From the IMG/VR virus record IMGVR_UViG_3300037311_000222, positions 5,894 through 69,893 of that record: a DNA stretch of 64,000 nucleotides. One strand, 5' to 3'. The stretch comes from a virus. Taxonomy: Duplodnaviria; Caudoviricetes. A program made the translations under genes and the position numbers. Below are positions 5,684 through 21,790 of the stretch, piece after piece (the first letter of the stretch is position 1; the number at the start of each line of letters is the position of its first letter). The notes under the pieces were generated by a model. The model worked only from the letters and a program-made list of their open reading frames with translations. It ran no database searches and was not told the DNA's origin.

Positions 5684-5928
5684 TTATTTCCTTGCTCGTA
5701 TTCGTAACAAAACGCTTTTACTCCTAATTGAACCTGACCCATATCAGGATTGTATTCTATCAATTCAGAGCAAGTATGTCGTAAACTATGAGATATTCTA
5801 TGGTTTTTTAGAACTCGTAAATGGGTGTCTAGCTTAGAAGTTTCATAGCCTATTGTATAAAAAACTAAGTAACATCCGATTGTATAGCAGCATAACACCA
5901 AAAAAAACTTCATTAGATGTCCTTCCAT
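5680..5928 (-). CDS. hypothetical exported/membrane protein
   Basis: Hydrophobic N-terminus MKFFLVLCCYTIGCYLVFY. Confidence 0.55.
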   Translation of the reverse strand: MEGHLMKFFLVLCCYTIGCYLVFYTIGYETSKLDTHLRVLKNHRISHSLRHTCSELIEYNPDMGQVQLGVKAFCYEYEQGNK

Positions 5929-19301: not shown

Positions 19302-19332
19302 ACACTCTATAGAGATTGGCTCTATAGAGTGT
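19302..19332. repeat. 13-bp perfect inverted repeat in MCP leader
   Basis: ACACTCTATAGAG-ATTGG-CTCTATAGAGTGT; each arm contains palindrome CTCTATAGAG. Confidence 0.85.
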
Positions 19333-19475
19333 ATTAACGAAAATGGGTAGTTTGATATCAACTACTTACGGAATCTGTAGCAACCCTTTTGGGCCTACAA
19401 GATAAGCCTTAAGCTAGAGCAGTATTGTACTTATCTGTTTTTAAGTTTTAATTAACTTTTAAATAGGAGTATTGT

Positions 19476-19643
19476 ATGGCCGGAGAAAATACGGTTACAA
19501 CCTTAAACGGTCTTTTCCAGAACGTTTATGCAGATAAACTAAAGAACTTGATTCCTGAGGGAACTAAGCTTCTTAACAAAATCCCTTTTGGTGAAAGAGA
19601 AAAATCACTCGGATCATTCTACGTACAGAGTGTTATTTTGGGT
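19476..19643 (+). CDS. major capsid protein, exon 1 (56 aa, MAGENTVTTLNGLFQNVY...SVILG)
   Basis: SD TAGGAG; ORF missed by the track; ends in GGT immediately before intron 1. Confidence 0.88.
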
Positions 19644-19858
19644 TAACCTTTTAGGCCCAATAAAAATCTTCTCTGATTGACTCGGACCTCCAGAAGTGGA
19701 CAACGAGGCGCAAGGGTAAAGCCAGCGTGAGAGACTAAGCGAGAAGACGACAAAAGTCGATGCAATAGTCCGATCTACCGCATAACCCAAGAAACGGTAG
19801 AGGTTGACAGAAATGTTTAACCCCTGTTAGAATGGAATTGTAACAGAGTAACAACTTG
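19644..19858 (+). ncRNA. group I intron 1 (215 nt, no ORF)
   Basis: P1 exon TTGGGT/GCCCAA (19655-60) with U.G pair; P10 TTTTAG/CTAGAA; P3 TCTTCTC/GAGAAGA; P7 GACTA (19733)/TAGTC (19766); P8 CGAC-AAAA-GTCG; terminal G 19858. Confidence 0.9.
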
Positions 19859-19870
19859 CTAGAACACGGT
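19859..19870 (+). CDS. major capsid protein, 12-nt micro-exon 2 (L-E-H-G)
   Basis: CTAGAACACGGT; keeps frame; both halves pair with flanking intron guide sequences. Confidence 0.85.
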
Positions 19871-20699
19871 AAACGATAAAGTAATGCCGTGCCTAAATTG
19901 GTGAAAAAACATGGAAGGCTAAAGATTAAATGAGAAAATACGGAATTGTATATAAAATTACAAATTTAAAAACAGGTAAATCCTACGTAGGACAAACCGT
20001 TGAATCCGTAAAAGAAAGATTCTACGCTCATTATCAAGACAAAAGAGCTAATACTTACGTCGGTAATGCACTGAGAAGCGAAGGTAGACAAAACTTTATA
20101 TTTGAAGAATTGTTTATAGCGTTTGATAAAGAATCTTTAAATTTAGTCGAAAAACTTTTAGTTGAACAGTTAAATACGTTATATCCGAATGGTTATAATT
20201 TACGTCCTGGCGGCAGTCAGTATGGTAAAATGTCGTAAGAAACAAAAGAAAAAATTAGTAAGTCTAAAACTGGTAAACCTCTTTTAAAAAAAAAACGAGG
20301 AGAAATCAGAAGTGAAAATCAAAGACTACAAATTTCAGTTTCTTTGTGTGGAAAACCAATACTTTGTGAAAATGAATTAAACGGACAAAAAACCATATAT
20401 TTAACTGCTCACGAAACAACGAACTACGGGTTTCAACCTTGGAACGTAGTAGCTTGTTGTAGGGGTAAAAGAGTTCGACATAAAAATTGTAAATTTTCTT
20501 ATTTAATCCATGCTAATCAGAGCGGAAGTGTTGACAGTAACAAGTCTTCACACGCGCAACGACTAGAGATTGAAACTACTGAGTAGAATAAAATATCTCC
20601 ACGAGTCACCGACAACGTTTAATAGACGTTGAAAAGATAGTCTGAACTTATAGGAAACTATGAGAAGTAGAGGATAAAGAGCCTTTACGATAACAAATG
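19871..20699 (+). mobile_element. group I intron 2 (829 nt) carrying GIY-YIG homing endonuclease ORF
   Basis: P1 CACGGT/GCCGTG (19886-91); P10 AAGTAAT/ATTACTT; P3 TTGGTGA/TCACCGA; P7 GACTA (20561)/TAGTC (20638); P8 CAACGT/ACGTTG; terminal G 20699. Confidence 0.92.
19930..20586 (+). pseudogene. GIY-YIG homing endonuclease with NUMOD3-like linker, interrupted by in-frame TAA at 20236-20238
   Basis: GIVYKITNLKTGKSYVGQT, R...H, E...N motifs; track ORFs 19930..20238 and 20344..20586 are the same frame with one stop (MS*ETKEKISKSKTG). Confidence 0.85.
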
Positions 20700-21737
20700 A
20701 TTACTTATGCAGGACCTACCGACGATGCGTTTACTCTTGATGACGCTATCGAAGGTGCTGTTCTTCCCGCTCAAATTCAAGGAAGTCAGATGATGTTGCG
20801 TTCACGCCTTGGTGTTGGTGCAGCTTCTCGTGCTTCTGCTGGTAAAGCAGCTTTTGAAGAGGCCACTAAATACCTCGTTCGTAACATGCTTCGTTCTATG
20901 TCTCGTCGCGTAGAAGCAGGTTTGTTTTACGGTGGCGTTGGTATTGGCGAAGTTGGTGCACTCCCAGGTGGAGCTGTTATCACTATTGCTACTGCTGAGT
21001 GGGCTCCAGGAATCTGGGCTGGTTCTGAAAAAATGAAAGTAGACATTTACGATGCTACTTCCACTACTCTTCGCGGTTCTGCGCAAGTTGTAGCGGTTAA
21101 CATGTCAAATCGACGTGTAACTCTTGATGCTCTCCCTGTAGGAACTCTTGTTACCGACAAGATTTACTTCAAAGGCGCTAAAGATAAAGAATTTGTCGGT
21201 ATTCACAGAATTTTAAGCAACACTGGCGTACTTTTCAACATTTCTGCAGCTAGCTACAACCTGTGGCGCGGAAACGAATTGAACATCGGAGGTAACCCTC
21301 TGTCTTTCAATCGTCTTCAAGATGCTATTGCTCTTGCTGTTGAAAAAGGACTTGACAGCGAAGTTGAAGTGTATGTTAACCCTCGCGCTTGGTCTGATCT
21401 TTTAACAGAGCAGTCTGCTCTTCGTCGCCTTGACGAATCCTACAAGACTTCTGTTACTGAGAATGGAAGCCAAGAAATCACGTTCTACGGACAAAACGGA
21501 AAAGTTTCTATCGTTCCGTCTAACTTCGTAAAAGAAGGTTTTGCTTACGTTCTTTGCATGGAAGATTTTATGAGAATTGGTTCATCTGACATTACGTTTA
21601 AGCGTCCTGGTCAAGGTGATAATTTCTTTAAAGATCTGGAAAACAGCGCTGGTTACGAGATGAGAGCTTACTGTGATATGGCGCTTCTGTGCGTATCTCC
21701 AGGTAAAAACACCATCATCAGTAGTATTGTTAACTAA
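20700..21737 (+). CDS. major capsid protein, exon 3 (345 aa); spliced product 405 aa
   Basis: Follows scaffold, ends at strong terminator; spliced junction reads SVILG-LEHG-ITYAG; the track ATG 20697 includes the intron terminal G and has no SD. Confidence 0.88.
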   Translation: MTYAGPTDDAFTLDDAIEGAVLPAQIQGSQMMLRSRLGVGAASRASAGKAAFEEATKYLVRNMLRSMSRRVEAGLFYGGVGIGEVGALPGGAVITIATAEWAPGIWAGSEKMKVDIYDATSTTLRGSAQVVAVNMSNRRVTLDALPVGTLVTDKIYFKGAKDKEFVGIHRILSNTGVLFNISAASYNLWRGNELNIGGNPLSFNRLQDAIALAVEKGLDSEVEVYVNPRAWSDLLTEQSALRRLDESYKTSVTENGSQEITFYGQNGKVSIVPSNFVKEGFAYVLCMEDFMRIGSSDITFKRPGQGDNFFKDLENSAGYEMRAYCDMALLCVSPGKNTIISSIVN

Positions 21738-21758: not shown

Positions 21759-21790
21759 AAAGAGGCTCCTCCCAAGGGGCCTTTTTTATT
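21759..21790 (+). terminator. rho-independent terminator after MCP
   Basis: AAAGAGGCTCC-TCCCAA-GGGGCCTTTTTT. Confidence 0.8.

Follow-up and report, generated by a model that had tools for sequence, protein, structure and literature searches.

A phage major capsid gene apparently split by two unrelated group I introns on either side of a 12-nt exon

Very short exons have been described in several genes that carry group I introns. The orf142 gene of phage Twort contains three such introns, the second and third of which are separated by an exon of 23 nucleotides (nt) (Landthaler and Shub 1999, as related in PMC10136302); a 34-nt exon lies between tandem group I introns in Coxiella (PMC10136302), and a small exon has also been reported for phiNIT1 (PMC11878797). 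Group I introns in the major capsid gene of Faustovirus E12 leave exons down to 13 nt (PMC6247863), and placozoan cox1 has an exon of 1 nt (PMC5436844). The capsid genes of mycobacteriophage LittleE and of lactococcal phage Tuc2009 harbour group I introns as well (PMC3706429). Here we analyse a stretch of 64,000 nt (the window; positions 5,894 to 69,893) of the 69.9-kb virus record IMGVR_UViG_3300037311_000222, from an uncultured phage. In this window, the gene for a putative HK97-fold major capsid protein is very probably split by two unrelated group I introns located 12 nt apart, within the codons for ..VILG-LEHG-ITY.., each of them being removed by its own ribozyme.

As far as the account of Twort cited above goes, orf142 and the window have in common a phage structural gene, tandem group I introns and a very short exon that gives the P10 helix to one intron and the P1 helix to the next. 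However, the Twort introns are described there as near-identical IA2 copies with exon skipping, whereas the exon of the window has 12 nt, is flanked by introns of different families and is predicted from the sequence. In Faustovirus and placozoa, capsid or core genes are likewise cut into pieces, micro-exons among them, by group I introns of which some contain GIY-YIG open reading frames (ORFs). These genes belong to a giant virus of eukaryotes and to a mitochondrion, and both cases have been proven by RNA-seq, as opposed to the tailed phage locus described here, which we read from its DNA. LittleE and Tuc2009 offer the parallel of a highly expressed capsid gene that appears split in annotation and that holds a self-splicing intron equipped with a homing endonuclease, but their introns are single, whereas the window has two, 12 nt apart, in a gene family with at least six insertion sites. 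With such published precedents, the tandem capsid introns of the window are an ordinary case among known mobile elements. What is noteworthy is the length of the 12-nt exon, shorter than the 23 nt of Twort, an intron family that is undetected by the Rfam model, and a dense insertion hot spot.

All exon and intron coordinates given in a first-pass annotation of the window hold when the sequence is read again (Table 1). Once joined, the three predicted exons form the single ORF of 405 amino acids (aa) that had been proposed, reading ..SVILG-LEHG-ITYAG... The frame of an unspliced message would end, as also noted earlier, at a TAA (19644-19646) directly after TTGGGT, and omission of the 12-nt exon would keep the frame and remove LEHG, the in-frame loss of four residues that had been pointed out. 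The same annotation had warned that 60 residues would disappear from automated gene calls. Indeed, the only long ORF available to a gene caller is 20697-21737 (346 aa); its Met (20697) is made of the last three bases of intron 2, so that 60 capsid residues are lost.

This exon structure could be compared with intronless homologues. A search with exon 3 retrieved 1732 capsid relatives, the best of them 92% identical, and most of these relatives are 404-413 aa long. GLEHG stands at exactly the position of the micro-exon in 95 of the 120 best homologues. The closest intronless allele, in locus L001, encodes without interruption a protein of 405 aa (P0001) that is 92% identical over exon 3 and whose N-terminus has the same sequence as the exon 1 product but for one residue. 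The DNA of L001 reads ..GTTATTTTGGGT CTAGAACACGGT ATTACTTATGCC.., as predicted for the ligated exons, and carries ..TTGGGT CTAGAACACGGT ATTACT.. exactly. Since the 12-mer is identical to L001 and the chance expectation of an exact 12-mer in the 1056-nt interval is about 6e-5 by simple arithmetic, the match of the micro-exon is more than chance. Alignment to intronless homologues had been set as a check on the first reading: LEHG is present, and the match extends residue for residue across ..VILG-LEHG-ITYAG... From these sequence comparisons, the predicted splice-site arrangement of the capsid gene is confirmed as real at the coordinates of Table 1. Several database proteins start exactly at such junctions (MITYDS.., VLEHG.., MLEQG..). 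P0072, P0049, P0080 and P0081, all from public protein sets, begin at intron junctions, and the predicted truncation is therefore already present in public gene calls. This artefact, which in the window costs 60 capsid residues and creates a false Met, concerns about one related locus in three and distorts capsid-based phage classification.

The internal guide sequences announced for the two introns were found to pair as described. In intron 1, TTTTAG (19649-19654) faces CTAGAA (19859-19864) in a P10 of 6 bp, and GCCCAA (19655-19660) faces TTGGGT (19638-19643) in a P1 of 6 bp with a U.G pair. In intron 2, AAGTAAT (19879-19885) faces ATTACTT (20700-20706) for P10 and GCCGTG (19886-19891) faces CACGGT (19865-19870) for P1. 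The idea that each half of the micro-exon serves a different ribozyme agrees with this layout, CTAGAA being predicted to enter P10 of intron 1 and CACGGT P1 of intron 2. All 12 bases of the micro-exon are predicted to be paired. Because the two pairings abut without overlap, we infer that splicing would follow no obligatory order: neither intron would need the prior removal of the other, and either could go first. Each ribozyme is also presumed to be self-sufficient.

The same junction logic is observed in related genes. We named alpha the family of homologous inserts in related capsid genes that includes intron 1, and beta the capsid-family relatives of intron 2, among them ORF-less copies of 256 nt. 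In all delimited alpha and beta introns (19/19), the 5′ exon ends with T, the intron ends with G, P1 carries a terminal U.G pair and a P10 of 4-8 bp adjoins P1. The guide has been adapted to each insertion site, with five alpha sites (nine alpha introns, 9/9 of which end in G) and three beta sites.

Intron 2 belongs to the beta family, which can be connected to a known covariance model. An ORF-less beta homologue in locus L059 matches Rfam RF00028 with 50.3 bits (E = 1.6e-11), the gathering score of this model being 50 bits, and the Rfam alignment of this copy gives P3 as UUGGUGA/UCACCAA, in agreement with the P3 deduced for beta. We counted 42 pairs in eight beta introns, from P3, outer P6, P7, P7.1, P7.1a, P8, P9 and P9.1 (within P4-P6, only the outer P6 pairs entered the count). 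They are 97.3% paired, with compensatory changes in 26/42, as compared to at most 85.7% paired in shuffles and 35-42% in slid controls. RNAalifold recovers P7, P7.1, P8, P9 and P9.1 unaided, double compensatory changes occur in P3 as well as in P7 (L077, L028), and P7.1 alternates between GAGAT/ATCTC and GGATT/AATCC. A candidate P3 formed by AATC/GATT near 20516/20567 was dropped, since GAGAT/ATCTC is the covarying P7.1 hairpin and TTGGTGA/TCACCGA covaries. Intron 2 displays features of phage IA-type introns, namely U.G in P1, omega-G, the P3/P7 pseudoknot, and P7.1/P7.1a between P7 and P3′.

The 3′ core of intron 2 (last 140 nt) is matched by 169 phage records. Beta-type inserts split TerL of Streptococcus thermophilus phage P4761 and ThyX of a crAss-like phage. 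The introns of P4761 TerL and Kolpuevirus ThyX (IA2-type, RF00028) are 70-84% identical to intron 2 in the 3′ core and share with it P7.1, a P9 with a GAAA loop and the ..GATAACA..G end. They differ by their host genes and their guides, and the GIY-YIG ORF in the window copy has a nonsense mutation. In P4761 TerL (L092:1190-1197), the exon preceding the beta-type intron ends with TATTTTGGGT, a 10-nt sequence also found at the end of exon 1 of the window, where an alpha intron is inserted.

The endonuclease ORF of intron 2 is placed in a loop of the P4-P6 region. It matches Pfam PF01541 (GIY-YIG; E = 1.3e-8, 35.4 bits for a cutoff of 22.6) and a PHROG homing endonuclease family (E = 8e-24). Over its full length it is 64% identical to the intact 220-aa GIY-YIG ORF of locus L002, and an in-frame TAA at 20236-20238 (codon 103) falls inside this alignment. 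The full-length frame is thereby interrupted in the window, whereas relatives are intact at 218-221 aa. Read from its sequence, this GIY-YIG gene is a pseudogene if the stop is genuine and not a variant introduced by assembly. Separate Pfam and PHROG matches at 19930-20235 and 20239-20586 had raised the alternative of a frameshifted endonuclease; it was rejected after a tblastn comparison with the L002 ORF, which gave one frame with a single TAA.

Intron 1 has no ORF, no P2 and no P7.1/P7.2, and it displays a group I topology: U.G in P1, a terminal G (19858), the P3/P7 pseudoknot, P4-P5-P6, P8, and J8/7 and P7 motifs. Its P7 is the usual GACUA..UAGUC, and GAUGCAAUAGUC resembles J8/7. The minimum-free-energy fold of intron 1 alone contains P1, P4, P5, P6, P8, P9, P9.1 and P9.2 (z = -2.4). 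Comparative analysis was based on an alignment (A2) of nine ORF-less alpha copies of 201-271 nt, produced by MAFFT alone and left unfitted. The 39 pairs counted in P3, P4, P5, P6, P7, P8, P9 and P9.1, P3/P7 pseudoknot included, are 99.4% paired, with compensatory changes in 24/39; none of 500 shuffles (0/500) reaches the observed level, and slid controls are 31-45% paired. P1 and P9.2 were left out of these counts because MAFFT misaligned them in alpha introns with P2 insertions, and P1/P10 were tabulated apart. The group I assignment of intron 1 is thus supported by comparative sequence analysis of the alpha family, on which it rests. Members of this family also split the ribonucleotide reductase gene of roseophage CRP-118 and the P22-type coat gene of a freshwater podovirus. 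At the site of intron 1 itself, the alpha introns of L003 and L004 carry HNH/NUMOD3 ORFs, so that intron 1 appears to be an ORF-less derivative.

Two minor features were recorded around intron 1. A near-consensus sigma-70-like promoter (TTGACA, 18 nt, TG-TAGAAT; 11/12) is present at 19804-19833 in the 3′ part of the intron, about 100 nt 5′ of the endonuclease ORF; its -35 box is a conserved ribozyme loop, and the match may be a coincidence. The sequence TTGGGCC in the 5′ untranslated region of the capsid gene (19389-19395) is complementary to the P1 guide GCCCAA, with C-G in place of the U.G wobble. It could be a decoy pairing but is probably due to chance.

Each intron would thus most likely be cut out of the late mRNA by its own ribozyme. 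A guanosine would attack after the U of the U.G pair in P1, and the freed 5′ exon would then attack after the last G of the intron, P10 holding the 3′ exon in place. The compact alpha ribozyme of intron 1 would take its P1 from TTGGGT of exon 1 and its P10 from the first six bases of the micro-exon; the IA-type beta ribozyme of intron 2 would take its P1 from the last six bases of the micro-exon and its P10 from the start of exon 3. The outcome would be the 405-aa capsid protein. Both introns appear to be relics of mobile elements, intron 1 having lost its endonuclease gene and intron 2 keeping a GIY-YIG gene with a premature TAA. The two-intron group I interpretation of the first-pass annotation is supported by covariation in both inserts and by the fact that, once they are excised, both the conserved protein and the DNA of an intronless allele are recovered exactly.

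Several points weigh against this scheme. As the ORF interrupts it, the match of window intron 2 to RF00028 (20424-20664) stays at 28.1 bits (E = 9e-5), short of the threshold of 50, and the P4/P5 assignments of this intron are tentative. Intron 1 gave no match to RF00028 in a gathering search, in a 251-nt search of 19630-19880 at E <= 10, or in a whole-window E-value scan. A test with group I models had been suggested at the outset, and its result is that the family of intron 2 reaches RF00028 through the L059 copy, with intron 1 unmatched by this model. The source record is a metagenomic contig estimated to be 82% complete, and splicing itself is something that we infer. One could therefore imagine that one or both ribozymes are dead, the phage being defective or the capsid gene a pseudogene without full-length protein, as the endonuclease gene of intron 2 is already decaying (TAA 20236-20238), intron 1 is minimal and unrecognised by Rfam, and the contig is metagenomic and incomplete. 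We consider this very unlikely: the three exons are intact, with 92% identity over exon 3 and near identity over exon 1 to the intronless homologue; all counted helices of both cores are fully paired in the window, which keeps all family-invariant columns; and alpha introns of 201-221 nt that lack P2 have been maintained in several divergent lineages.

Besides normal splicing, both introns could occasionally be removed together with the micro-exon, giving a capsid protein without LEHG. Such skipping would stay in frame, and there are documented instances both in phage SIOphi (PMC11878797) and where short exons separate tandem group I introns (PMC10136302). In the case of Twort, however, two highly similar introns are involved, for which a joint ribozyme was proposed. 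We judge skipping unlikely in the window because its introns are unrelated, coming from different families, and because TTTTAG, with which intron 1 would form P10, has no complementarity to ATTACT of exon 3; as LEHG is nearly invariant in homologues, the skipped product would probably be useless. An intein, translational bypass, a split capsid protein or an assembly chimera would also produce an interrupted gene, and to these we give hardly any weight. A TAA directly follows exon 1, further stops occur in the translated frames of the inserts, and a Pfam search found no intein domain. Intron-bearing alleles with the same junction logic are found on many independent contigs from different samples, and covariation of ribozyme helices is observed in both inserts. 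Excision of two separate group I introns, each by its own ribozyme, is the reading that we keep below.

The capsid 5′ end is interrupted in 35 of 91 related loci, a set that includes some duplicates. The alpha core was recognised in 28 loci and the 3′ core of beta in 17; roughly one related capsid gene in three carries introns of one or both families. Insertions occur after about residues 14, 49/50, 53, 55, 56, 60 and 72 and span around 60 codons. Internal exons of relatives measure 14 and 18 nt (L051), 16 nt (L028), 18 nt (L031), 24 nt (L059, L071), 30 nt (L055) and 35 nt (L002), so that the 12-nt exon of the window is the shortest among delimited internal exons. With this density, a conserved capsid motif is a homing hot spot, with numerous natural alleles in which to compare the retargeting of guides and the decay of endonucleases.

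Other arrangements were encountered in these loci. L051 (1545-3499) has three introns in a row, an alpha intron with an ORF, an ORF-less alpha intron and a beta intron with GIY-YIG, separated by the internal exons 2382-2399 (18 nt) and 2621-2634 (14 nt). L031 (97-1200) has two tandem alpha-family introns with an 18-nt exon between them (353-370), the second intron carrying an ORF. L006 (2520-3979), and also L014, has one alpha intron that apparently contains two endonuclease genes in different loops, one for a GIY-YIG protein (180 aa) and one for a LAGLIDADG protein (199 aa).

An alpha intron is located 12-35 nt upstream in six of the nine distinct beta-bearing capsid genes (L002, L028, L051, L059, L071 and the window), and alpha is found alone in many related capsid genes. 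The co-occurrence of alpha and beta could be due to co-conversion with the GIY-YIG endonuclease or to a shared site preference. We tentatively propose, while regarding it as rather doubtful, that alpha, as a re-targetable ribozyme, has shifted between five or more positions in about 40 nt of this capsid gene by rewriting of its guide and that, when 12-35 nt upstream of beta, it travels with the GIY-YIG gene of the latter as one co-converted unit. If this were true, such packing would have its limit in the 12-nt exon, every base of which is covered by a guide.

Table 1. Features of the split capsid gene and its predicted introns (positions in the window)
Feature	Position	Strand	Basis or remark
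Ribosome-binding site AGGAG	19465..19469	+	6 nt 5′ of capsid ATG; read directly from the sequence
Capsid exon 1, 56 codons, ends TTGGGT	19476..19643	+	ORF; last 6 nt are the 5′ strand of P1
Intron 1 (alpha), 215 nt	19644..19858	+	begins with in-frame TAA, ends with G
Intron 1 internal guide	19649..19660	+	TTTTAG (P10) + GCCCAA (P1)
Intron 1 P3	19668-73/19741-46	+	within core 19668..19846
Intron 1 P4	19681-84/19704-07	+	
Intron 1 P5	19689-92/19697-700	+	
Intron 1 P6	19708-11/19725-28	+	
Intron 1 P7	19733-37/19766-70	+	
Intron 1 P8	19748-51/19756-59	+	
Intron 1 P9	19774-80/19795-801	+	
Intron 1 P9.1	19802-07/19817-22	+	
Intron 1 P9.2	19824-29/19841-46	+	outside the counted set
Exon 2, 12 nt, CTAGAACACGGT, codes LEHG	19859..19870	+	same as intronless L001; LEHG conserved in homologues
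Intron 2 (beta), 829 nt	19871..20699	+	ends ..AAATG
Intron 2 internal guide	19879..19891	+	AAGTAAT (P10) + GCCGTG (P1)
Intron 2 P3	TTGGTGA 19898-19904 with TCACCGA 20606-20612	+	spans the ORF; covaries, e.g. CTGAAGT/ACTTCAG in L077
GIY-YIG homing endonuclease, putative pseudogene, 218 sense codons, one frame	19930..20586	+	Pfam, PHROG, comparison with L002
Intron 2 3′ ribozyme core	20501..20699	+	alignment/covariation
Intron 2 P7	20561-65/20638-42	+	
Intron 2 P7.1	20566-70/20595-99	+	
Intron 2 P7.1a	20576-79/20583-86	+	
Intron 2 P8	20614-18/20626-30	+	
Intron 2 P9	20647-53/20658-64	+	
Intron 2 P9.1	20668-73/20682-87	+	
Capsid exon 3, 345 codons + TAA	20700..21737	+	homologues, PHROG major head protein
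Terminator-like hairpin with T-run	21759..21786	+	3′ of capsid gene

Since searches of the capsid protein against Pfam and against PDB sequences gave no match, its identity rests on PHROG and on a fold search. Exon 3 matches a PHROG major head protein family (E = 7e-14), and Foldseek, run with a model of the 92%-identical P0001 (predicted local distance difference test score, pLDDT, 70), retrieved the capsid proteins of SU10, SPO1 and cyanophages (E = 4e-10 to 1e-8). On the modelled fold, the gene product qualifies as an HK97-fold major capsid protein. Genes for TerL and a P22/SU10-like portal protein are located upstream of the capsid gene. The only cultured relative is a Silvanigrella phage (29% identity). 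The intergenic region between the scaffold and capsid genes contains, at 19302-19332, a perfect 13-bp inverted repeat (ACACTCTATAGAG / CTCTATAGAGTGT, 5-nt loop) with no T-run, which may form an RNA processing or regulatory hairpin.

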